A stretch of DNA of 64,000 nucleotides from Escherichia coli (lineage in GTDB: Bacteria; Pseudomonadota; Gammaproteobacteria; Enterobacterales; Enterobacteriaceae): assembly GCF_003334305.1 (NCBI RefSeq), contig NZ_QOWS01000006.1, one strand, 5' to 3'. Under the pieces are notes generated by a model. That model saw only the letters and a list, made by a program, of their open reading frames with translations, was not told where the DNA came from and made no database searches. The number at the start of each line of letters is the position of its first letter. Position 1 is the stretch's first letter. Shown one piece after another: positions 11,828 to 42,480 of this stretch. The position numbers and the translations under genes are program-made.

Positions 11828-14490
<2,663 letters not shown>

Positions 14491-18988: not shown

Positions 18989-19993
18989 GTGAAACTGGAT
19001 GAAATCGCTCGGCTGGCGGGAGTGTCGCGGACCACTGCAAGCTATGTTATTAACGGCAAAGCGAAGCAATACCGTGTGAGCGACAAAACCGTTGAAAAAG
19101 TCATGGCTGTGGTGCGTGAGCACAATTACCACCCGAACGCCGTGGCAGCTGGGCTTCGTGCTGGACGCACACGTTCTATTGGTCTTGTGATCCCCGATCT
19201 GGAGAACACCAGCTATACCCGCATCGCTAACTATCTTGAACGCCAGGCGCGGCAACGGGGTTATCAACTGCTAATTGCCTGCTCAGAAGATCAGCCAGAC
19301 AACGAAATGCGCTGTATTGAGCACCTTTTACAGCGTCAGGTCGATGCCATTATTGTTTCGACGTCGTTGCCTCCTGAGCATCCTTTTTATCAACGCTGGG
19401 CTAACGACCCGTTCCCGATTGTCGCGCTGGACCGCGCCCTCGATCGTGAACACTTCACCAGCGTGGTTGGTGCCGATCAGGATGATGCCGAAATGCTGGC
19501 GGAAGAGTTACGTAAGTTTCCCGCCGAGACGGTGCTTTATCTTGGCGCGCTGCCGGAGCTTTCTGTCAGCTTCCTGCGTGAACAAGGTTTCCGTACTGCC
19601 TGGAAAGATGATCCGCGCGAAGTGCATTTCCTGTATGCCAACAGCTATGAGCGGGAGGCGGCTGCCCAGTTATTCGAAAAATGGCTGGAAACGCATCCGA
19701 TGCCGCAGGCGCTGTTCACAACGTCGTTTGCGTTGTTGCAAGGGGTGATGGATGTAACGCTACGTCGCGATGGTAAACTGCCTTCTGACCTGGCAATTGC
19801 CACCTTTGGCGATAACGAACTGCTCGACTTCTTACAGTGCCCGGTGCTGGCAGTGGCTCAACGTCACCGCGATGTCGCAGAGCGTGTGCTGGAGATTGTC
19901 CTGGCAAGCCTGGACGAACCGCGTAAGCCAAAACCTGGTTTAACGCGCATTAAACGTAATCTCTATCGTCGCGGTGTGCTCAGCCGTAGCTAA
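18989..19993 (+). CDS. cra: Catabolite repressor/activator Cra (FruR), LacI family
   Basis: GTG start; (M)[56 protein letters not shown]... Confidence 0.95.
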
Positions 19994-20499
19994 GCCGCGA
20001 ACAAAAATACGCGCCAGGTGAATTTCCCTCTGGCGCGTAGAGTACGGGAATGGACATCAATATCCTTAAAGTAAATAAGACTATTCCTGACTATTATTGA
20101 TAAGTTCTTTTAAACCCGCCCGTTAATTAACTCACCAGCTGAAATTCACAATAATTAAGTGATATCGACAGCGCGTTTTTGCATTATTTTGTTACATGCA
20201 GAGATGAATTGCCGATTTAACAAGCACTTTTCTTTGCTTTTGCGCAAACCCGCTGGCATCAAGCGCCACACAGACGCAACAGGGACTGTTAACCGGGGAA
20301 GATATGTCCTAAAATGCCGCTCGCGTCGCAAACTGACACTTTATATTTGCTGTGGAAAATAGTGAGTCATTTTAAAACGGTGATGACGATGAGGGATTTT
20401 TTCTTACAGCTATTCATAACGTTAATTTGCTGCGCACGTTGGACGTAAAATAAACAACGCTGATATTAGCCGTAAACATCGGGTTTTTTACCTCGGTAT

Positions 20500-20594
20500 G
20501 CCTTGTGACTGGCTTGACAAGCTTTTCCTCCGCTCCGTAAACTCCTTTCAGTGGGAAATTGTGGGGCAAAGTGGGAATAAGGGGTGAGGCTGGC
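20500..20594 (+). promoter_or_regulatory. Pmra promoter of the dcw cluster with MraZ-binding direct repeats
   Basis: TTGACA at ~20513-20518, then three direct repeats with a 10-bp period (GTGGGaaattGTGGGgcaaaGTGGGaataag, ~20550-20580) immediately upstream of mraZ. MraZ binding to GTGGG repeats is established. Confidence 0.75.
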
Positions 20595-21053
20595 ATGTTC
20601 CGGGGAGCAACGTTAGTCAATCTCGACAGCAAAGGGCGCTTATCAGTGCCTACCCGTTACCGGGAACAGCTGCTTGAGAACGCTGCCGGTCAAATGGTTT
20701 GCACCATTGACATTCATCACCCGTGCCTGCTGCTTTACCCCCTGCCTGAATGGGAAATTATCGAGCAAAAATTATCGCGTCTGTCGAGCATGAACCCGGT
20801 TGAGCGCCGTGTGCAGCGCCTACTGTTAGGTCATGCCAGCGAATGTCAGATGGATGGCGCAGGTCGATTGTTAATCGCGCCAGTACTGCGGCAACATGCC
20901 GGGCTGACAAAAGAAGTGATGCTGGTTGGACAGTTCAACAAGTTTGAGCTGTGGGATGAAACAACCTGGCATCAACAGGTCAAGGAAGATATCGACGCAG
21001 AGCAGTTGGCTACCGGAGACTTATCGGAGCGACTGCAGGACTTGTCTCTATAA
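20595..21053 (+). CDS. mraZ: Transcriptional regulator MraZ
   Basis: [60 protein letters not shown]..., 152 aa; start internal to ORF-track 20559. Confidence 0.95.
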
Positions 21054-21054
21054 A

Positions 21055-21996
21055 ATGATGGAAAACTATAAACATACTACGGTGCTGCTGGATGAAGCCG
21101 TTAATGGCCTCAATATCCGTCCTGATGGCATCTACATTGATGGGACTTTTGGTCGCGGTGGTCACTCACGTCTGATCCTCTCGCAGCTTGGCGAAGAGGG
21201 GCGTTTGCTGGCGATCGATCGCGACCCGCAGGCTATCGCCGTTGCGAAGACTATTGATGATCCGCGCTTCTCCATCATCCACGGACCTTTCTCCGCGCTG
21301 GGCGAATACGTTGCCGAGCGCGATCTTATCGGCAAGATCGACGGCATTCTCCTCGATCTTGGCGTCTCTTCACCGCAACTTGATGATGCTGAGCGCGGCT
21401 TTTCCTTTATGCGCGATGGTCCGCTGGACATGCGTATGGACCCAACCCGTGGGCAGTCAGCCGCTGAATGGCTACAAACCGCAGAAGAAGCCGATATCGC
21501 CTGGGTATTGAAAACCTATGGTGAAGAGCGTTTTGCCAAACGCATTGCCCGCGCCATTGTCGAGCGTAATCGCGAACAGCCGATGACCCGCACCAAAGAA
21601 CTGGCGGAAGTCGTGGCTGCTGCAACGCCGGTGAAAGATAAGTTTAAACATCCCGCGACTCGTACCTTCCAGGCGGTGCGCATTTGGGTAAACAGTGAAC
21701 TGGAGGAGATAGAGCAGGCGCTAAAAAGCTCGCTCAACGTGCTGGCCCCGGGAGGGCGGCTTTCGATCATCAGCTTCCACTCGCTGGAAGACCGTATTGT
21801 GAAACGTTTTATGCGTGAAAACAGCCGCGGTCCGCAAGTTCCGGCAGGGTTACCGATGACTGAAGAGCAGCTCAAAAAACTGGGTGGCCGTCAGCTGCGA
21901 GCATTAGGCAAGTTAATGCCGGGCGAAGAAGAGGTGGCTGAGAATCCTCGTGCCCGTAGTTCAGTTCTGCGTATCGCAGAGAGGACGAACGCATGA
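21055..21996 (+). CDS. rsmH: 16S rRNA m4C1402 methyltransferase RsmH (MraW)
   Basis: [45 protein letters not shown]..., 313 aa; ATG 2 nt after the mraZ stop. Confidence 0.95.
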
Positions 21997-22358
21997 TCAG
22001 CAGAGTGACAGAAGCTCTAAGCAAAGTTAAAGGATCGATGGGAAGCCACGAGCGCCATGCATTGCCTGGTGTTATCGGTGACGATCTTTTGCGATTTGGG
22101 AAGCTGCCACTCTGCCTGTTCATTTGCATTATTTTGACGGCGGTGACCGTGGTAACCACGGCGCACCATACCCGTTTACTGACCGCTCAGCGCGAACAAC
22201 TGGTGCTGGAGCGAGATGCTTTAGACATTGAATGGCGCAACCTGATCCTTGAAGAGAATGCGCTCGGCGACCATAGCCGGGTGGAAAGGATCGCCACGGA
22301 AAAGCTGCAAATGCAGCATGTTGATCCGTCACAAGAAAATATCGTAGTGCAAAAATAA
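21993..22358 (+). CDS. ftsL: Cell division protein FtsL
   Basis: 121 aa, [63 protein letters not shown]... Overlaps rsmH stop (ATGA). Confidence 0.95.
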
Positions 22359-22373
22359 GGATAAACGCGACGC

Positions 22374-24140
22374 ATGAAAGCAGCGGCGAAAACGCAGAAA
22401 CCAAAACGTCAGGAAGAACATGCCAACTTTATTAGTTGGCGTTTTGCGTTGTTATGCGGCTGTATTCTCCTGGCGCTGGCTTTTCTGCTCGGACGCGTAG
22501 CGTGGTTACAAGTTATCTCCCCGGATATGCTGGTGAAAGAGGGCGACATGCGTTCTCTTCGCGTTCAGCAAGTTTCCACCTCCCGCGGCATGATTACTGA
22601 CCGTTCTGGTCGCCCGTTAGCGGTGAGCGTGCCGGTAAAAGCGATTTGGGCTGACCCGAAAGAAGTGCATGACGCTGGCGGTATCAGCGTCGGTGACCGC
22701 TGGAAGGCGCTGGCTAACGCGCTCAATATTCCGCTGGATCAGCTTTCTGCCCGCATTAACGCCAACCCGAAAGGGCGCTTTATTTATCTGGCGCGTCAGG
22801 TAAACCCTGACATGGCGGACTACATCAAAAAATTGAAACTGCCGGGGATTCATCTGCGTGAAGAATCTCGCCGTTATTATCCATCCGGCGAAGTGACTGC
22901 TCACCTCATCGGCTTTACTAACGTCGATAGTCAGGGGATTGAGGGCGTTGAGAAGAGTTTCGATAAATGGCTTACCGGGCAGCCGGGTGAGCGCATTGTG
23001 CGTAAAGACCGCTATGGTCGCGTAATTGAAGATATTTCTTCTACTGACAGCCAGGCGGCGCACAACCTGGCGTTGAGTATTGATGAACGCTTGCAGGCGC
23101 TGGTTTATCGCGAACTGAACAACGCGGTGGCCTTTAACAAGGCTGAATCCGGTAGCGCCGTGCTGGTGGATGTCAACACCGGTGAAGTGCTGGCGATGGC
23201 TAACAGCCCGTCATACAACCCTAACAATCTGAGCGGCACGCCGAAAGAGGCGATGCGTAACCGTACCATCACCGACGTGTTTGAACCGGGCTCAACGGTT
23301 AAACCGATGGTGGTAATGACCGCGTTGCAACGTGGCGTGGTGCGGGAAAACTCGGTACTCAATACCATTCCTTATCGAATTAACGGCCACGAAATCAAAG
23401 ACGTGGCACGCTACAGCGAATTAACCCTGACCGGGGTATTACAGAAGTCGAGTAACGTCGGTGTTTCCAAGCTGGCGTTAGCGATGCCGTCCTCAGCGTT
23501 AGTAGATACTTACTCACGTTTTGGACTGGGAAAAGCGACCAATTTGGGGTTGGTCGGAGAACGCAGTGGCTTATATCCTCAAAAACAACGGTGGTCTGAC
23601 ATAGAGAGGGCCACCTTCTCTTTCGGCTACGGGCTAATGGTAACACCGTTACAGTTAGCGCGAGTCTACGCAACTATCGGCAGCTACGGCATTTATCGCC
23701 CACTGTCGATTACCAAAGTTGACCCCCCGGTTCCCGGTGAACGTGTCTTCCCGGAATCCATTGTTCGCACCGTGGTGCATATGATGGAAAGCGTGGCGCT
23801 ACCAGGCGGCGGCGGCGTGAAAGCGGCGATTAAAGGCTATCGTATCGCCATTAAAACCGGTACCGCGAAAAAGGTCGGGCCGGACGGTCGCTACATCAAT
23901 AAATATATTGCTTATACCGCAGGCGTTGCGCCTGCGAGTCAGCCGCGCTTCGCGCTGGTTGTTGTTATCAACGATCCGCAGGCGGGTAAATACTACGGCG
24001 GCGCCGTTTCCGCGCCGGTCTTTGGTGCCATCATGGGCGGCGTATTGCGTACCATGAACATCGAGCCGGATGCGCTGACAACGGGCGATAAAAATGAATT
24101 TGTGATTAATCAAGGCGAGGGGACAGGTGGCAGATCGTAA
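22374..24140 (+). CDS. ftsI: Peptidoglycan D,D-transpeptidase FtsI (PBP3)
   Basis: 588 aa with the STVK active-site motif (…[12 protein letters not shown]…), SSN and KTG motifs. Confidence 0.97.
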
Positions 24141-25614
24141 TTTGCGCGACCTTCTTGCTCCGTGGGTGCCAGACGCACCTTCGCGAGCACTGCGAGAGAT
24201 GACACTCGACAGCCGTGTGGCTGCGGCGGGCGATCTCTTTGTAGCTGTAGTAGGTCATCAGGCGGACGGGCGTCGATATATCCCGCAGGCGATAGCGCAA
24301 GGTGTGGCTGCCATTATTGCAGAGGCGAAAGGTGAGGCGACCGACGGTGAAATCCGTGAAATGCACGGCGTACCGGTCATCTATCTCAGCCAGCTCAACG
24401 AGCGTTTATCTGCACTGGCGGGCCGCTTTTACCATGAACCCTCTGACAATTTACGTCTCGTAGGCGTAACGGGCACCAACGGCAAAACCACGACTACCCA
24501 GCTGCTGGCGCAGTGGAGCCAACTGCTTGGCGAAACCAGCGCGGTAATGGGCACCGTTGGTAACGGTCTGCTGGGGAAAGTGATCCCGACAGAAAATACC
24601 ACCGGTTCGGCAGTCGATGTTCAGCATGAGCTGGCGGGGCTGGTGGATCAGGGCGCGACGTTTTGCGCAATGGAAGTTTCCTCCCACGGGCTGGTACAGC
24701 ACCGTGTGGCGGCATTGAAATTTGCGGCGTCGGTCTTTACCAACTTAAGCCGCGATCACCTTGATTATCATGGTGATATGGAACACTACGAAGCCGCGAA
24801 ATGGCTGCTTTATTCTGAACATCATTGTGGTCAGGCGATTGTTAACGCCGACGATGAAGTGGGCCGCCGCTGGCTGGCAAAACTGCCGGACGCGGTTGCG
24901 GTATCAATGGAAGATCATATCAATCCGAACTGTCACGGACGCTGGTTGAAAGCGACCGAAGTGAACTATCACGACAGCGGCGCGACCATTCGCTTTAGTT
25001 CAAGTTGGGGCGATGGCGAAATTGAAAGCCATCTGATGGGCGCTTTTAACGTCAGCAACCTGCTGCTCGCGCTGGCGACACTGCTGGCACTTGGCTACCC
25101 GCTGGCTGATCTGTTAAAAACCGCCGCGCGTCTGCAACCGGTTTGCGGACGTATGGAAGTGTTCACTGCGCCAGGCAAACCGACGGTGGTGGTGGATTAC
25201 GCGCATACGCCGGATGCACTGGAAAAAGCCTTACAGGCGGCGCGCCTGCACTGTGCGGGCAAGCTGTGGTGCGTCTTTGGCTGTGGTGGCGATCGCGATA
25301 AAGGTAAGCGTCCACTGATGGGCGCAATTGCCGAAGAGTTTGCTGACGTGGCGGTGGTGACGGACGATAACCCGCGTACCGAAGAACCGCGTGCCATCAT
25401 CAACGATATTCTGGCGGGAATGTTAGATGCCGGACATGCCAAAGTGATGGAAGGCCGTGCTGAAGCGGTGACTTGCGCCGTTATGCAGGCTAAAGAGAAT
25501 GATGTGGTACTGGTCGCGGGCAAAGGCCATGAGGATTACCAGATTGTTGGCAATCAGCGTCTGGACTACTCCGATCGCGTCACGGTGGCGCGTCTGCTGG
25601 GGGTGATTGCATGA
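24127..25614 (+). CDS. murE: UDP-MurNAc-tripeptide synthetase (meso-DAP adding) MurE
   Basis: 495 aa, GTG start overlapping the ftsI 3' end; Mur ligase motifs ([11 protein letters not shown]). Confidence 0.96.
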
Positions 25615-26969
25615 TTAGTGTAACCCTTAGCCAACTTACCGATATTCTCAACGGTGAACTGCAAGGTGCAGATATCACCCTTGATGCTGTAACCACTGAT
25701 ACCCGAAAACTGACGCCGGGCTGCCTGTTTGTTGCCCTGAAAGGCGAACGTTTTGATGCCCACGATTTTGCCGACCAGGCGAAAGCTGGCGGCGCAGGCG
25801 CACTACTGGTTAGCCGTCCGCTGGACATCGACCTGCCGCAGTTAATCGTCAAGGATACGCGTCTGGCGTTTGGTGAACTGGCTGCATGGGTTCGCCAGCA
25901 AGTTCCGGCGCGCGTGGTTGCTCTGACGGGGTCCTCCGGCAAAACCTCCGTTAAAGAGATGACGGCGGCGATTTTAAGCCAGTGCGGCAACACGCTTTAT
26001 ACGGCAGGCAATCTCAACAACGACATCGGTGTACCGATGACGCTGTTGCGCTTAACGCCGGAATACGATTACGCAGTTATTGAACTTGGCGCGAACCATC
26101 AGGGCGAAATAGCCTGGACTGTGAGTCTGACTCGCCCGGAAGCTGCGCTGGTCAACAACCTGGCAGCGGCGCATCTGGAAGGTTTTGGCTCGCTTGCGGG
26201 TGTCGCGAAAGCGAAAGGTGAAATCTTTAGCGGCCTGCCGGAAAACGGTATCGCCATTATGAACGCCGACAACAACGACTGGCTGAACTGGCAGAGCGTA
26301 ATTGGCTCACGCAAAGTGTGGCGTTTCTCACCCAATGCCGCCAACAGCGATTTCACCGCCACCAATATCCATGTGACCTCGCACGGTACGGAATTTACCC
26401 TACAAACCCCAACCGGTAGCGTCGATGTTCTGCTGCCGTTGCCGGGGCGTCACAATATTGCGAATGCGCTGGCAGCCGCTGCGCTCTCCATGTCCGTGGG
26501 CGCAACGCTTGATGCTATCAAAGCGGGGCTGGCAAATCTGAAAGCTGTTCCAGGCCGTCTGTTCCCCATCCAACTGGCAGAAAACCAGTTGCTGCTCGAC
26601 GACTCCTACAACGCCAATGTCGGTTCAATGACCGCCGCTGTTCAGGTACTGGCTGAAATGCCGGGCTACCGCGTGCTGGTGGTGGGCGATATGGCGGAAC
26701 TGGGCGCTGAAAGCGAAGCCTGCCATGTACAGGTGGGCGAAGCGGCAAAAGCTGCTGGTATTGACCGCGTGTTAAGCGTGGGTAAACAAAGCCATGCTAT
26801 CAGCACCGCCAGCGGCGTTGGCGAACATTTTGCTGATAAAACTGCGTTAATTACGCGTCTTAAATCACTGATTGCTGAGCAACAGGTAATTACGATTTTA
26901 GTTAAGGGTTCACGTAGTGCCGCCATGGAAGAGGTAGTACGCGCATTACAGGAGAATGGGACATGTTAG
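25611..26969 (+). CDS. murF: UDP-MurNAc-pentapeptide synthetase MurF
   Basis: 452 aa; Mur ligase P-loop ([13 protein letters not shown]); overlaps murE stop. Confidence 0.96.
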
Positions 26970-28045
26970 TTTGGCTGGCCGAACATTTGGTCAAATATTA
27001 TTCCGGCTTTAACGTCTTTTCCTATCTGACGTTTCGCGCCATCGTCAGCCTGCTGACCGCGCTGTTCATCTCATTGTGGATGGGCCCGCGTATGATTGCT
27101 CATTTGCAAAAACTTTCCTTTGGTCAGGTGGTGCGTAACGACGGTCCTGAATCACACTTCAGCAAGCGCGGTACGCCGACCATGGGCGGGATTATGATCC
27201 TGACGGCGATTGTGATCTCCGTACTGCTGTGGGCTTACCCGTCCAATCCGTACGTCTGGTGCGTGTTGGTGGTGCTGGTAGGTTACGGTGTTATTGGCTT
27301 TGTTGATGATTATCGCAAAGTGGTGCGTAAAGACACCAAAGGGTTGATCGCTCGTTGGAAGTATTTCTGGATGTCGGTCATTGCGCTGGGTGTCGCCTTC
27401 GCCCTGTACCTTGCCGGCAAAGACACGCCCGCAACGCAGCTGGTGGTCCCATTCTTTAAAGATGTGATGCCGCAGTTGGGGCTGTTCTACATTCTGCTGG
27501 CTTACTTCGTCATTGTGGGTACTGGCAACGCGGTAAACCTGACCGATGGTCTCGACGGCCTGGCAATTATGCCGACCGTATTTGTCGCCGGTGGTTTTGC
27601 GCTGGTGGCGTGGGCGACCGGCAATATGAACTTTGCCAGCTACTTGCATATACCGTATCTGCGACACGCCGGGGAACTGGTCATTGTCTGCACGGCGATA
27701 GTCGGGGCAGGACTGGGCTTCCTGTGGTTTAACACCTATCCGGCGCAGGTCTTTATGGGCGATGTAGGTTCGCTGGCGTTAGGTGGTGCGTTAGGCATTA
27801 TCGCCGTACTGCTACGTCAGGAATTCCTGCTGGTGATTATGGGGGGCGTGTTCGTGGTAGAAACGCTTTCTGTCATCCTGCAGGTCGGCTCCTTTAAACT
27901 GCGCGGACAACGTATTTTCCGCATGGCACCGATTCATCACCACTATGAACTGAAAGGCTGGCCGGAACCGCGCGTCATTGTGCGTTTCTGGATTATTTCG
28001 CTGATGCTGGTTCTGATTGGTCTGGCAACGCTGAAGGTACGTTAA
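26963..28045 (+). CDS. mraY: Phospho-MurNAc-pentapeptide translocase MraY
   Basis: 360-aa polytopic membrane protein [38 protein letters not shown]... Confidence 0.96.
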
Positions 28046-28047
28046 TC

Positions 28048-29364
28048 ATGGCTGATTATCAGGGTAAAAATGTCGTCATTATCGGCCTGGGCCTCACCGG
28101 GCTTTCCTGCGTGGACTTTTTCCTCGCTCGCGGTCTGACGCCGCGCGTTATGGATACGCGTATGACACCGCCTGGCCTGGATAAATTACCCGAAGCCGTA
28201 GAACGCCACACGGGCAGTCTGAATGATGAATGGCTGATGGCGGCAGATCTGATTGTCGCCAGTCCCGGTATTGCACTGGCGCATCCATCCTTAAGCGCTG
28301 CCGCTGATGCCGGAATCGAAATCGTTGGCGATATCGAGCTGTTCTGTCGCGAAGCACAAGCACCGATTGTGGCGATTACCGGTTCTAACGGCAAAAGCAC
28401 GGTCACCACGCTAGTGGGTGAAATGGCGAAAGCGGCGGGGGTTAACGTTGGTGTGGGTGGCAATATTGGCCTGCCAGCGTTGATGCTGCTTGATGCTGAG
28501 TGCGAACTGTACGTGCTGGAACTGTCGAGCTTCCAGCTGGAAACCACCTCCAGCTTACAGGCGGTAGCAGCGACCATTCTGAACGTGACTGAAGATCATA
28601 TGGATCGCTATCCGTTTGGTTTACAACAGTATCGTGCAGCAAAACTGCGCATTTACGAAAACGCGAAAGTTTGCGTGGTTAATGCTGATGATGCCTTAAC
28701 AATGCCGATTCGCGGTGCGGATGAACGCTGCGTCAGCTTTGGCGTCAACATGGGTGACTATCACCTGAATCATCAGCAGGGAGAAACCTGGCTGCGGGTT
28801 AAAGGCGAGAAAGTGCTGAATGTGAAAGAGATGAAACTTTCCGGGCAGCATAACTACACCAATGCGCTGGCAGCACTGGCACTGGCAGACGCAGCTGGTT
28901 TACCGCGCGCCAGCAGCCTGAAAGCGTTAACCACCTTCACCGGTCTGCCGCATCGCTTTGAAGTGGTGCTGGAGCACAATGGCGTACGCTGGATTAACGA
29001 TTCGAAAGCCACTAACGTCGGCAGTACGGAAGCGGCGTTGAATGGCTTGCAGGTAGACGGCACGCTGCATTTGTTGCTGGGCGGCGATGGTAAATCGGCG
29101 GACTTCAGTCCACTGGCGCGCTATCTGAATGGCGACAACGTGCGTTTGTACTGTTTTGGTCGTGACGGTGCGCAGCTGGCGGCGCTACGCCCGGAAGTGG
29201 CAGAACAAACCGAAACCATGGAACAAGCGATGCGCTTGCTGGCTCCGCGTGTTCAGCCGGGCGATATGGTTCTGCTCTCCCCGGCCTGTGCCAGCCTTGA
29301 TCAGTTCAAGAACTTTGAACAACGAGGCAATGAGTTTGCCCGTCTGGCGAAGGAGTTAGGTTGA
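28048..29364 (+). CDS. murD: UDP-MurNAc-L-Ala--D-Glu ligase MurD
   Basis: 438 aa; [29 protein letters not shown]..., Mur ligase motif ([13 protein letters not shown]). Confidence 0.96.
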
Positions 29365-30608
29365 TGCGTTTATCTCTCCCTCGCCTGAAAATGCCGCGCC
29401 TGCCAGGATTCAGTATCCTGGTCTGGATCTCCACGGCGCTAAAAGGCTGGGTGATGGGCTCGCGGGAAAAAGATACCGACAGCCTGATCATGTACGATCG
29501 CACCTTACTGTGGCTGACCTTCGGCCTTGCGGCGATTGGCTTTATCATGGTGACCTCGGCGTCAATGCCCATAGGGCAACGCTTAACCAACGATCCGTTC
29601 TTCTTCGCGAAGCGTGATGGCGTCTATCTGATCCTGGCATTCATTCTGGCGATCATTACGCTGCGTCTGCCGATGGAGTTCTGGCAACGCTACAGTGCCA
29701 CGATGCTGCTCGGATCTATCATCCTGCTGATGATCGTGCTGGTAGTGGGTAGCTCGGTTAAAGGGGCATCGCGTTGGATCGATCTCGGTTTGCTGCGTAT
29801 CCAGCCTGCGGAGCTGACAAAACTGTCGCTGTTTTGTTATATCGCCAACTATCTGGTGCGTAAAGGCGACGAAGTACGTAATAACCTGCGCGGCTTCCTG
29901 AAACCGATGGGCGTGATTCTGGTGTTGGCAGTGTTACTGCTGGCACAGCCAGACCTTGGTACGGTGGTGGTGTTGTTTGTGACTACGCTGGCGATGTTGT
30001 TCCTGGCGGGAGCGAAATTGTGGCAGTTCATTGCCATTATCGGTATGGGCATTTCAGCGGTTGTGTTGCTGATACTCGCCGAACCGTACCGTATCCGCCG
30101 TGTTACCGCATTCTGGAACCCGTGGGAAGATCCCTTTGGCAGCGGCTATCAGTTAACGCAATCGCTGATGGCGTTTGGTCGCGGCGAACTTTGGGGACAA
30201 GGTTTAGGTAACTCGGTACAAAAACTGGAGTATCTGCCGGAAGCGCACACTGACTTTATTTTCGCCATTATCGGCGAAGAACTGGGGTATGTCGGTGTGG
30301 TGCTGGCACTTTTAATGGTATTCTTCGTCGCTTTTCGCGCGATGTCGATTGGCCGCAAAGCGTTAGAAATTGACCACCGTTTTTCCGGTTTTCTCGCCTG
30401 TTCTATTGGCATCTGGTTTAGCTTCCAGGCGCTGGTTAACGTAGGCGCGGCGGCGGGGATGTTACCGACCAAAGGTCTGACATTGCCGCTGATCAGTTAC
30501 GGTGGTTCGAGCTTACTGATTATGTCGACAGCCATCATGATGCTGTTGCGTATTGATTATGAAACGCGTCTGGAGAAAGCGCAGGCGTTTGTACGAGGTT
30601 CACGATGA
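29364..30608 (+). CDS. ftsW: Peptidoglycan glycosyltransferase / lipid II flippase-family protein FtsW (SEDS)
   Basis: [53 protein letters not shown]..., 414 aa; start overlaps murD stop (TGATG). Confidence 0.95.
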
Positions 30609-31672
30609 GTGGTCAAGGAAAGCGATTAATGGTGATGGCAGGCGGAACCGGTGGACATGTATTCCCGGGACTGGCGGTTGCGCACCATCTAATGGCTCAG
30701 GGTTGGCAAGTTCGCTGGCTGGGGACTGCCGACCGTATGGAAGCGGACTTAGTGCCAAAACATGGCATCGAAATTGATTTCATTCGTATCTCTGGTCTGC
30801 GTGGAAAAGGTATAAAAGCACTGATAGCTGCGCCGCTGCGTATCTTCAACGCCTGGCGTCAGGCGCGGGCGATTATGAAAGCGTACAAACCTGACGTGGT
30901 ACTCGGTATGGGCGGCTATGTATCAGGTCCAGGTGGTCTGGCCGCGTGGTCGTTAGGCATTCCGGTTGTACTTCATGAACAAAACGGTATTGCGGGCTTA
31001 ACCAATAAATGGCTGGCGAAGATTGCCACCAAAGTGATGCAGGCGTTTCCAGGCGCTTTCCCTAATGCGGAAGTGGTGGGTAACCCGGTGCGTACCGATG
31101 TGCTGGCGCTGCCGTTGCCGCAGCAACGTTTGGCTGGACGTGAAGGTCCGGTTCGTGTGCTGGTAGTGGGTGGTTCCCAGGGCGCACGCATTCTTAACCA
31201 GACAATGCCGCAGGTTGCTGCGAAACTGGGTGATTCAGTCACTATCTGGCATCAGAGCGGTAAAGGTTCGCAACAATCCGTTGAACAGGCGTATGCCGAA
31301 GCGGGGCAACCGCAGCATAAAGTGACGGAATTTATTGATGATATGGCGGCGGCGTATGCGTGGGCGGATGTCGTCGTTTGCCGCTCCGGTGCTTTAACGG
31401 TGAGTGAAATCGCCGCGGCAGGACTACCGGCGTTGTTTGTGCCGTTTCAACATAAAGACCGCCAGCAATACTGGAATGCGCTACCGCTGGAAAAAGCGGG
31501 CGCAGCCAAAATTATCGAGCAGCCACAGCTTAGCGTGGATGCTGTCGCCAACACCCTGGCCGGGTGGTCGCGAGAAACCTTATTAACCATGGCAGAACGC
31601 GCCCGCGCTGCATCCATTCCGGATGCCACCGAGCGAGTGGCAAATGAAGTGAGCCGGGCTGCCCGGGCGTAA
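30605..31672 (+). CDS. murG: UDP-GlcNAc:lipid I GlcNAc transferase MurG
   Basis: 355 aa; [41 protein letters not shown]... Confidence 0.96.
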
Positions 31673-31725
31673 TTGTAGCGATGCCTTTTGCATCGTATGA
31701 ATTTAAGAAGTTAATGGCGTAAAGA

Positions 31726-34114
<2,389 letters not shown>

Positions 34115-34115
34115 T

Positions 34116-34946
34116 ATGTCGCAGGCTGCTCTGAACACGCGAAACAGTGAAGAAGAGGTTTCTTCTCGCCGCAATAATGGAACGCGTCTGGCGGGGATCC
34201 TTTTCCTGCTGACCGTTTTAACGACAGTGTTGGTGAGCGGCTGGGTCGTGTTGGGCTGGATGGAAGATGCGCAACGCCTGCCGCTCTCAAAGCTGGTGTT
34301 GACCGGTGAACGCCATTACACGCGTAATGACGATATCCGGCAGTCGATCCTGGCATTGGGTGAGCCGGGTACCTTTATGACCCAGGATGTCAACATCATT
34401 CAGACGCAAATAGAACAACGCCTGCCGTGGATTAAGCAGGTGAGCGTCAGAAAGCAGTGGCCTGATGAATTGAAGATTCATCTGGTTGAATATGTGCCGA
34501 TTGCGCGGTGGAATGATCAACACATGGTAGACGCGGAAGGAAACACCTTCAGCGTGCCGCCAGATCGCACCAGCAAGCAGGTGCTTCCAATGCTGTATGG
34601 CCCGGAAGGCAGCGCCAATGAAGTGTTGCAGGGCTATCGCGAAATGGGGCAGATGCTGGCAAAGGACAGATTTACTCTGAAGGAAGCGGCGATGACCGCG
34701 CGGCGTTCCTGGCAGTTGACGCTGAATAACGATATTAAGCTCAATCTTGGCCGGGGCGATACGATGAAACGTTTGGCTCGCTTTGTAGAACTTTATCCGG
34801 TTTTACAGCAGCAGGCGCAAACCGATGGCAAACGGATTAGCTACGTTGATTTGCGTTATGACTCTGGAGCGGCAGTAGGCTGGGCGCCCTTGCCGCCAGA
34901 GGAATCTACTCAGCAACAAAATCAGGCACAGGCAGAACAACAATGA
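34116..34946 (+). CDS. ftsQ: Cell division protein FtsQ
   Basis: 276 aa; single TM plus POTRA; [48 protein letters not shown]... Confidence 0.95.
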
Positions 34947-36205
34947 TCAAGGCGACGGACAGAAAACTGGTAGTAGGACTGGAGATTGGTACCGCGAAGG
35001 TTGCCGCTTTAGTAGGGGAAGTTCTGCCCGACGGTATGGTCAATATCATTGGCGTGGGCAGCTGCCCGTCACGTGGTATGGATAAAGGCGGGGTGAACGA
35101 CCTCGAATCCGTGGTCAAGTGCGTACAACGCGCCATTGACCAGGCAGAATTGATGGCAGATTGTCAGATCTCTTCGGTATATCTGGCGCTTTCTGGTAAG
35201 CACATCAGCTGCCAGAATGAAATTGGTATGGTGCCTATTTCTGAAGAAGAAGTGACGCAAGAAGATGTGGAAAACGTCGTCCATACCGCGAAATCGGTGC
35301 GTGTGCGCGATGAACATCGTGTGCTGCATGTGATCCCGCAAGAGTATGCGATTGACTATCAGGAAGGGATCAAGAATCCGGTAGGACTTTCGGGCGTGCG
35401 GATGCAGGCAAAAGTGCACCTGATCACATGTCACAACGATATGGCGAAAAACATCGTCAAAGCGGTTGAACGTTGTGGGCTGAAAGTTGACCAACTGATA
35501 TTTGCCGGACTGGCATCAAGTTATTCGGTATTGACGGAAGATGAACGTGAACTGGGTGTCTGCGTCGTCGATATCGGTGGTGGTACAATGGATATCGCCG
35601 TTTATACCGGTGGGGCATTGCGCCACACTAAGGTAATTCCTTATGCTGGCAATGTCGTGACCAGTGATATCGCTTACGCCTTTGGCACGCCGCCAAGCGA
35701 CGCCGAAGCGATTAAAGTTCGCCACGGTTGTGCGCTGGGTTCCATCGTTGGAAAAGATGAGAGCGTGGAAGTGCCGAGCGTAGGCGGTCGTCCGCCACGG
35801 AGTCTGCAACGTCAGACCCTGGCAGAGGTGATCGAGCCGCGCTATACCGAGCTGCTCAACCTGGTCAACGAAGAGATATTGCAGTTGCAGGAAAAGCTTC
35901 GCCAACAAGGGGTTAAACATCACCTGGCGGCAGGCATTGTATTAACCGGTGGCGCAGCGCAGATCGAAGGTCTTGCAGCCTGTGCTCAGCGCGTGTTTCA
36001 TACGCAAGTGCGTATCGGCGCGCCGCTGAACATTACCGGTTTAACGGATTATGCTCAGGAGCCGTATTATTCGACGGCGGTGGGATTGCTTCACTATGGG
36101 AAAGAGTCACATCTTAACGGTGAAGCTGAAGTAGAAAAACGTGTTACAGCATCAGTTGGCTCGTGGATCAAGCGACTCAATAGTTGGCTGCGAAAAGAGT
36201 TTTAA
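34943..36205 (+). CDS. ftsA: Cell division protein FtsA (actin-like ATPase)
   Basis: 420 aa; [57 protein letters not shown]... Confidence 0.97.
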
Positions 36206-36265
36206 TTTTTATGAGGCCGACGATGATTACGGCCTCAGGCGACAGGCACAAATCGGAGAGAAACT

Positions 36266-37417
36266 ATGTTTGAACCAATGGAACTTACCAATGACGCGGT
36301 GATTAAAGTCATCGGCGTCGGCGGCGGCGGCGGTAATGCTGTTGAACACATGGTGCGCGAGCGCATTGAAGGTGTTGAATTCTTCGCGGTAAATACCGAT
36401 GCACAAGCGCTGCGTAAAACAGCGGTTGGACAGACGATTCAAATCGGTAGCGGTATCACCAAAGGACTGGGCGCTGGCGCTAATCCAGAAGTTGGCCGCA
36501 ATGCGGCTGATGAGGATCGCGATGCATTGCGTGCGGCGCTGGAAGGTGCAGACATGGTCTTTATTGCTGCGGGTATGGGTGGTGGTACCGGTACAGGTGC
36601 AGCACCAGTCGTCGCTGAAGTGGCAAAAGATTTGGGTATCCTGACCGTTGCTGTCGTCACTAAGCCTTTCAACTTTGAAGGCAAGAAGCGTATGGCATTC
36701 GCGGAGCAGGGGATCACTGAACTGTCCAAGCATGTGGACTCTCTGATCACTATCCCGAACGACAAACTGCTGAAAGTTCTGGGCCGCGGTATCTCCCTGC
36801 TGGATGCGTTTGGCGCAGCGAACGATGTACTGAAAGGCGCTGTGCAAGGTATCGCTGAACTGATTACTCGTCCGGGTTTGATGAACGTGGACTTTGCAGA
36901 CGTACGCACCGTAATGTCTGAGATGGGCTACGCAATGATGGGTTCTGGCGTGGCGAGCGGTGAAGACCGTGCGGAAGAAGCTGCTGAAATGGCTATCTCT
37001 TCTCCGCTGCTGGAAGATATCGACCTGTCTGGCGCGCGCGGCGTGCTGGTTAACATCACGGCGGGCTTCGACCTGCGTCTGGATGAGTTCGAAACGGTAG
37101 GTAACACCATCCGTGCATTTGCTTCCGACAACGCGACTGTGGTTATCGGTACTTCTCTTGACCCGGATATGAATGACGAGCTGCGCGTAACCGTTGTTGC
37201 GACAGGTATCGGCATGGACAAACGTCCTGAAATCACTCTGGTGACCAATAAGCAGGTTCAGCAGCCAGTGATGGATCGCTACCAGCAGCATGGGATGGCT
37301 CCGCTGACCCAGGAGCAGAAGCCGGTTGCTAAAGTCGTGAATGACAATGCGCCGCAAACTGCGAAAGAGCCGGATTATCTGGATATCCCAGCATTCCTGC
37401 GTAAGCAAGCTGATTAA
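36266..37417 (+). CDS. ftsZ: Cell division GTPase FtsZ
   Basis: 383 aa; tubulin signature GGGTGTG (…[20 protein letters not shown]…). Confidence 0.98.
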
Positions 37418-37496
37418 GAATTGACTGGAATTTGGGTTTCGAGGCTCTTTGTGCTAAACTGGCCCGCCGAATGTATAGTACACTTCGGTTGGATAG

Positions 37497-38435
<939 letters not shown>

Positions 38436-38497
38436 CGACATTTATACTGTCGTATAAAATTCGACTGGCAAATCTGGCACTCTCTCCGGCCAGGTGA

Positions 38498-39178
<681 letters not shown>

Positions 39179-42004: not shown

Positions 42005-42480
<476 letters not shown>

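Follow-up and report, generated by a model that had tools for sequence, protein, structure and literature searches.

What are the three GTGGG repeats that stand between the Pmra promoter and the start codon of mraZ, at the head of the dcw cluster? A first-pass annotation of this locus, which lies in the window analysed here (the whole stretch of 64,000 nucleotides of Escherichia coli DNA), proposed that they match the described operator of the MraZ protein and place autoregulation at the head of a 16-gene cluster. Our analysis leads to the same identification with high confidence, and the repeats are very probably the Pmra operator, that is, the MraZ-binding repeats of E. coli. This operator is already known from E. 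coli K-12 as well as from several further bacterial species, and is an ordinary element. Binding and repression by MraZ at the site have been reported in the literature for the identical K-12 sequence.

The repeats were found where they had been placed, as three copies of GTGGG on the plus strand whose starts lie exactly 10 bp apart between Pmra and mraZ (Table 1). The interval originally given for them, 20550–20594, encompasses the whole stretch from just past the −10 hexamer to the start codon, but the repeats themselves occupy only 20551–20575. Read on the plus strand, positions 20538–20597 are TAAACT CCTTTCA GTGGG AAATT GTGGG GCAAA GTGGG AATAAGGGGTGAGGCTGGC ATG, with 19 nt between the end of box 3 and the mraZ ATG. 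An MraZ operator is expected to contain at least three direct repeats built on a GTG(G/T) core, and three GTGGG are present here on one strand. It is also expected to have a period of 10 bp, one helical turn, which was observed in the window and in 80 related species. Finally, it should sit between promoter and gene, and here the boxes follow a −10 hexamer that ends at 20543 and precede an ATG at 20595, with mraZ, rsmH, and ftsL downstream.

Table 1 Features of the Pmra–mraZ region and the dcw cluster, in window coordinates.
Feature	Position	Strand	Remarks
Pmra −35 hexamer, TTGACA	20514–20519	+	Consensus scan; invariant in 79 distinct Enterobacteriaceae sequences
Pmra −10 hexamer, TAAACT	20538–20543	+	Promoter scan; invariant across species
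MraZ box 1, GTGGG (core GTGG)	20551–20555	+	Overlaps the expected transcription start; 7 nt past the −10 hexamer
MraZ box 2, GTGGG (core GTGG)	20561–20565	+	Preceding TT invariant
MraZ box 3, GTGGG (core GTGG, 20571–20574)	20571–20575	+	Fifth G (20575) specific to E. coli
Possible degenerate fourth in-phase unit, GGGGT (speculative)	20581–20585	+	10 bp past box 3; abuts the ribosome-binding site
Likely Shine-Dalgarno sequence, GGTGAGG	20583–20589	+	5 nt before the ATG; inferred by reading the sequence; column conservation 0.81–0.99
mraZ CDS, 152 aa	20595–21053	+	TIGR00242, 225 bits (cut-off 98)
Remaining 15 dcw genes, rsmH to lpxC	21055–38435	+	K-12 annotation and collinearity

No second copy of the phased arrangement exists in the window. 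A search of both strands for GTGGGN5GTGGGN5GTGGG gave a single match, even with one mismatch permitted, against none in 100 dinucleotide-preserving shuffles, and the relaxed pattern GTGG-N6-GTGG-N6-GTGG likewise has a single match (shuffle mean 0.01). Lone GTGGG occurs 90 times, below the shuffle mean of 116. Since the lone word is this common and the triplet is unique, the signal lies in the phased triplet and not in the word. The two-box pattern GTGG-N6-GTGG was found five times, including two matches inside the operator, against a shuffle mean of 2.6; further candidate MraZ sites with this pattern at 12751, 57703, and 59504 were rejected because the counts are within chance expectation. Tandem Repeats Finder called no repeat between 20400 and 20700, as the 10-bp units have just 4–5 bases in common and are too degenerate for it, while a general repeat finder recovered solely AGTGGGAA, in two copies 20 bp apart.

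Directly upstream of the boxes lies the σ70-like promoter Pmra, which matches 10 of 12 consensus positions in a consensus scan and has an 18-bp spacer. Judged from the −10 hexamer, transcription would start at approximately 20550–20552; database annotation is reported to place the start 38 nt before the ATG, at approximately 20557. The spacer between the two hexamers (20520–20537, AG[C/G]TTTTCCTCCGCTCCG) itself hardly varies among 81 sequences. A σ70 spacer does not normally need such strong conservation, which suggests an extra constraint on 20520–20537.

The gene context is that of the dcw cluster. The gene for Cra (18989–19993) lies upstream of mraZ, and the next open reading frame after mraZ is rsmH, which scores 452 bits against TIGR00006. 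Positions 19861–38961 of the window are collinear with positions 88900–108000 of K-12 MG1655, without gaps and at 99.06% identity. The cluster extends from mraZ to lpxC (20595–38435) and comprises 16 protein-coding genes by the K-12 annotation. Because that annotation lists 16 coding sequences and the window is collinear with it, the proposed gene count is correct. Repression has been reported for the first 11 of these genes, not for all 16.

The immediate reference for this operator is that of E. coli K-12, which has the same boxes, −10 hexamer, leader, and gene context, and the same position downstream of the −10 hexamer. The window is identical to MG1655 from 20532 to the mraZ start, and the sole nearby difference falls at 20531 within the promoter spacer, where the window has C and K-12 has A. 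According to Eraso 2014, as cited in PMC7761207, the E. coli protein binds to repeats located past the −10 hexamer and represses Pmra, with repression extending over the first 11 genes, from mraZ to murC. In PMC8475190, MraZ is likewise described as binding conserved “MraZ boxes” upstream of the cluster. The proposed match to the described operator agrees with the repeats that these sources, and those on other bacteria considered below, report.

In order to define the conserved part of the operator, we compared 80 Enterobacteriaceae loci, taken from one genome per species and encoding MraZ proteins 88–96% identical to the query, which together with the window give 81 sequences; column conservation was derived from an alignment of 79 distinct sequences. 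All 81 sequences fit the layout TTGACA-18 nt-TAAACT-4–8 nt-GTGGN-N5-GTGGN-N5-GTGGN-leader-ATG. The spacer after each 5-nt box is exactly 5 nt in 81/81, with zero indels inside the array. Outside it, lengths differ: box 1 begins 4, 6, 7, or 8 nt after the −10 hexamer (7 nt in 74 of the 81), and box 3 is separated from the ATG by either 18–20 nt or 27–29 nt. In the 79 sequences conservation reaches 100% at every GTGG column of the three boxes, and likewise at the TT preceding box 2 and the AAA preceding box 3. Other spacer positions vary, and most of the cra–mraZ intergenic DNA scores 0.26–0.7. Conservation across the family had been put forward as the check on the operator reading, with a loss of repeat spacing or sequence in related genomes as the outcome that would speak against it. 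Both the spacing and the GTGG core proved invariant in 80/80 other species.

The same comparison narrows the motif. Boxes 1 and 2 are each GTGGG in 80 of the 81 sequences, while box 3 outside E. coli is GTGGT (54 sequences, including E. albertii), GTGGC (15), or GTGGA (11), and has G as its fifth base in the window only. The conserved unit is GTGG followed by a 6-nt spacer, not GTGGG. The core of the motif as first annotated is thus retained, but the 5-nt form overstates the recognition unit, because species other than E. coli lack the fifth G of box 3. Eraso 2014 (J Bacteriol 196:2053) reportedly gave the E. coli repeat as TGGGN with 5-nt spacers, a description that differs from the GTGG core and 6-nt spacers obtained here.

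Phased GTGG arrays extend well beyond the family. Distant loci were chosen as representatives of MraZ clusters 36–63% identical to E. coli MraZ and traced by exact sequence, and in all of them the genes follow the order mraZ-rsmH(-ftsL). Nine such loci were examined over 160 nt upstream of mraZ: GTGG pairs were found 11 times at 10 bp and seven times at 20 bp, and any other spacing up to 25 bp was seen at most once, with shuffles giving approximately 0.01. Arrays of GTGG with 10-bp phasing are present at seven of the nine, some with four boxes. At one locus (L087) a promoter with TTGACA and TAAACT is followed by three boxes, and at another (L088) no repeats were found within 160 nt.

Operators described in other bacteria share this plan and differ in detail. 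In Bacillus subtilis, three GTGG[A/T]G repeats with 4-nt spacers are required for repression (White et al., bioRxiv 10.1101/2022.02.09.479790). As in the window, these are three direct repeats in the mra promoter with a GTGG core and a 10-bp period, and the triplet is reported by White et al. to be unique in its genome; the bases after the core are A/T-G in B. subtilis and G-N in E. coli. MraZ overproduction phenotypes and regulon size are reported to differ between the two species. The consensus for Mollicutes, (AAAGTGKN3)3 (PMC5282649), has the same 10-bp period and a GTG(G/T) core, and box 3 of the window with its preceding bases, AAAGTGG, fits AAAGTGK exactly. For Mycoplasma genitalium, PMC12957436 describes a box of GTG(G/T) plus six spacer nucleotides, with which the GTGG plus 6-nt unit defined here agrees, and reports that the repeats are needed for repression and that the transcription start lies inside box 1. 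M. genitalium has four boxes, whereas E. coli has three clear ones. The Burkholderia cenocepacia site, also downstream of the −10 hexamer, comprises four repeats of 7 nt separated by 3 nt (PMC7761207). It shares with E. coli this placement, the 10-bp period, and an overlap with the transcription start; it differs in its number of repeats and in its leader of 100 nt, compared to roughly 40–45 nt here.

The MraZ encoded in the window has the residues expected of a protein that binds such boxes. It contains two DXXXR motifs, D11-S-K13-G-R15 and D87-G-A-G-R91, along with basic residues in the positions that contact DNA in a structurally characterized homolog. MraZ R15A is said to have lost activity in Eraso 2014, and a loss of activity for R15A is also mentioned by White et al. 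(bioRxiv 10.1101/2022.02.09.479790). The protein matches solved structures of M. genitalium MraZ with promoter DNA (9qlr, 9qlg/9r4j, and 9sx6/9sz7) and of M. pneumoniae MraZ (1n0e). Similarity to M. genitalium MraZ is weak (phmmer E ~1e-11), and PMC12957436 cites 28% identity between the M. genitalium protein and a homolog. In the alignment, D11, K13, and R15 fall on the sequence LDNKNR, and D87 and R91 on LDSANR, so that K13, R15, and R91 of the window protein align with the DNA-contacting residues K13, R15, and R86 of M. genitalium MraZ. In cryo-EM structures of the latter each box is bound by a single subunit, whose K13, R15, and R86 touch the box bases in the major groove, and alanine substitutions of the contact residues end binding and repression (PMC12957436).

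Taken with the position of the boxes, these data point to a mechanism of the following kind. MraZ, an oligomeric AbrB/SpoVT-type protein encoded by the first gene downstream of the boxes, would insert a basic “cradle” of each subunit (E. coli residues K13, R15, and R91) into a single major groove at a GTG(G) box, a one-subunit-per-box geometry extrapolated from M. genitalium. The free M. genitalium protein is described as an octamer, and a dodecamer has been suggested for E. coli (PMC12957436). Owing to their 10-bp spacing the boxes face the same side of the helix, and adjacent subunits of one oligomer could therefore bind cooperatively. The array would span from approximately the transcription start to approximately +25. 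Since this lies inside the region occupied by RNA polymerase, bound MraZ would be predicted to block initiation or promoter escape. The expected outcome is that mraZ is negatively autoregulated and the dcw genes nearest the promoter are repressed.

Other readings of this G-rich stretch were also weighed. The repeats could act mainly as a G-quadruplex, in the non-template DNA strand or the mRNA leader, that impedes transcription or translation, a role proposed for the mraZ promoter of Staphylococcus aureus. Positions 20553–20584 (+) do contain four tracts of at least three G with loops of 1–7 nt, forming one of two canonical G3+N1-7 ×4 motifs in the window and giving its top G4Hunter score (1.68 in a 25-nt window), and a quadruplex downstream of PmraZ has been characterized biophysically in S. 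aureus (PMC11796246). The G at 20575 creates this motif, the only canonical one near mraZ. In the 100 nt upstream of mraZ the canonical motif is present in 0/80 other Enterobacteriaceae species, because box 3 has only GG there, so the motif is not conserved as the boxes are. The invariant T of GTGG and the invariant TT and AAA are not quadruplex requirements but fit recognition by a protein, and a strict 10-bp phase is no quadruplex requirement either. The loops, at 7, 6, and 5 nt, are long. Long loops lower the stability of a G-quadruplex. We regard a mainly quadruplex-based role as very unlikely, and the quadruplex in the operator as incidental, perhaps with a small effect of its own. The only other canonical motif in the window is at 42273–42301 (+), with the sequence GGGAAGGGGAGCCGTGGGGTAAAGAAGGG.

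An action in RNA, through structure in the mraZ 5′ leader or through extra ribosome-contacting G-runs that control translation, would draw on the fact that the repeats are transcribed if the start is near 20550, and on the resemblance of the G-runs, the last of which abuts the likely ribosome-binding site, to Shine-Dalgarno sequences. Yet the repeats are unpaired in the predicted fold of 20550–20630, which is no more stable than expected (z = +0.40, with 128/200 shuffles folding at least as well), and the leader has no family match in Rfam. The 10-bp period and the invariant GTGG are unexpected for an RNA element, and the position of the array relative to the start codon differs widely among distant loci, between −43 and −95. 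This makes an RNA-level role extremely improbable. The probability is closer still to nil that the repeats are the site of another proposed dcw regulator, PdhR or LexA, or a product of chance. A 1.7-fold enrichment of PdhR at the mraZ upstream region with weak in vitro binding is reported in PMC3265435, which also mentions LexA boxes for the dcw cluster. Within 19994–20594, however, no PdhR-like ATTGGT-N3-ACCAAT with up to three mismatches and no LexA-like CTGT-N8-ACAG with up to one mismatch was found, and the sites of both proteins are palindromic, unlike the array of three direct repeats. Both the shuffles and the conservation rule out a chance arrangement.

Beyond the three boxes of the MraZ operator, two further features are conceivable in E. 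coli but unlikely in our estimate: a candidate fourth unit at 20581–20585, and the quadruplex created by G20575. GGGG is present 10 bp past box 3 in 69 of the 81 sequences. In 20 species the leader is approximately 10 bp longer, and GGGG in phase is kept in 10 of these; in the longer-leader species the GGGTGAGG ribosome-binding site is shifted one turn further. The longer leaders (loci such as L053, L055, and L076) look as if one 10-bp unit had been duplicated. Read from the sequence, the in-phase GGGG may represent a degenerate fourth unit, growth of the array by 10-bp duplication, or a purine-rich leader. Were a fourth unit real, MraZ occupancy would extend towards the start codon; were the G20575 quadruplex real, E. 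coli would have a structure-based layer of control that its relatives do not have.

Within E. coli the operator is almost fixed. Many E. coli chromosomes match the 301 bp around it at 100% identity, and the region is found in 5424 of 5426 complete genomes; at least 28 nt of the 30-nt operator (20550–20579) match exactly in at least 5392 of the 5426. Approximately 32 genomes carry the locus without a 28-nt exact match, and these are natural variants or assembly errors. Among the 5424 promoter-region matches, three fall on records labeled as plasmids. A common polymorphism, C20549T, is located immediately outside box 1. In strain WS3294A (NZ_CP035819.1; L082), a 5-bp deletion of CAGTG, aligned to 20549–20553, removes the GTG of box 1; because this strain lacks box 1, the full array would not be indispensable, barring an assembly error.

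The operator is an already known feedback switch by which MraZ acts on its own promoter, as well as on the nearby genes for division and the cell wall, and finding it again confirms annotation only. The comparative refinements, namely the GTGG unit, the strict 10-bp phase, the G found only in E. coli, and the indel-free array between flanks that do have indels, could guide the design of operator mutants.

Several further observations were made around the locus. A record titled Chryseobacterium sp. 18061 (CACSKA010000010.1; L021) contains an Enterobacteriaceae-type mraZ locus, encoding an MraZ 93% identical to that of E. coli, with a promoter and operator almost equal to those of Citrobacter sp. 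18056 from the same study; it is probably a mislabeled or contaminated assembly. Upstream of Pmra, three blocks of the cra–mraZ intergenic region are near-invariant in the 79 Enterobacteriaceae sequences (20305–20345, 20399–20432, and 20181–20196), surrounded by DNA with conservation of 0.26–0.7. A 44-codon open reading frame starting at 20314, in the conserved upstream block, was rejected as a conserved protein, because its length ranges from 7 to 75 codons across species and it contains frameshifts. The block at 20305–20345 has a promoter-like CTGACA-16-GAAAAT at 20333–20360, and ATTTGCTG is common to two of the three blocks, in copies 80 bp apart. Inside the cluster, the K-12 annotation includes the small RNA FtsO within ftsI and the antisense RNA StfZ over the ftsA–ftsZ junction, which on subtraction of 69039 from the K-12 coordinates correspond to window positions 23446–23619 and 35909–36460, respectively. 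As the window is collinear with K-12 there, both RNAs should be present.
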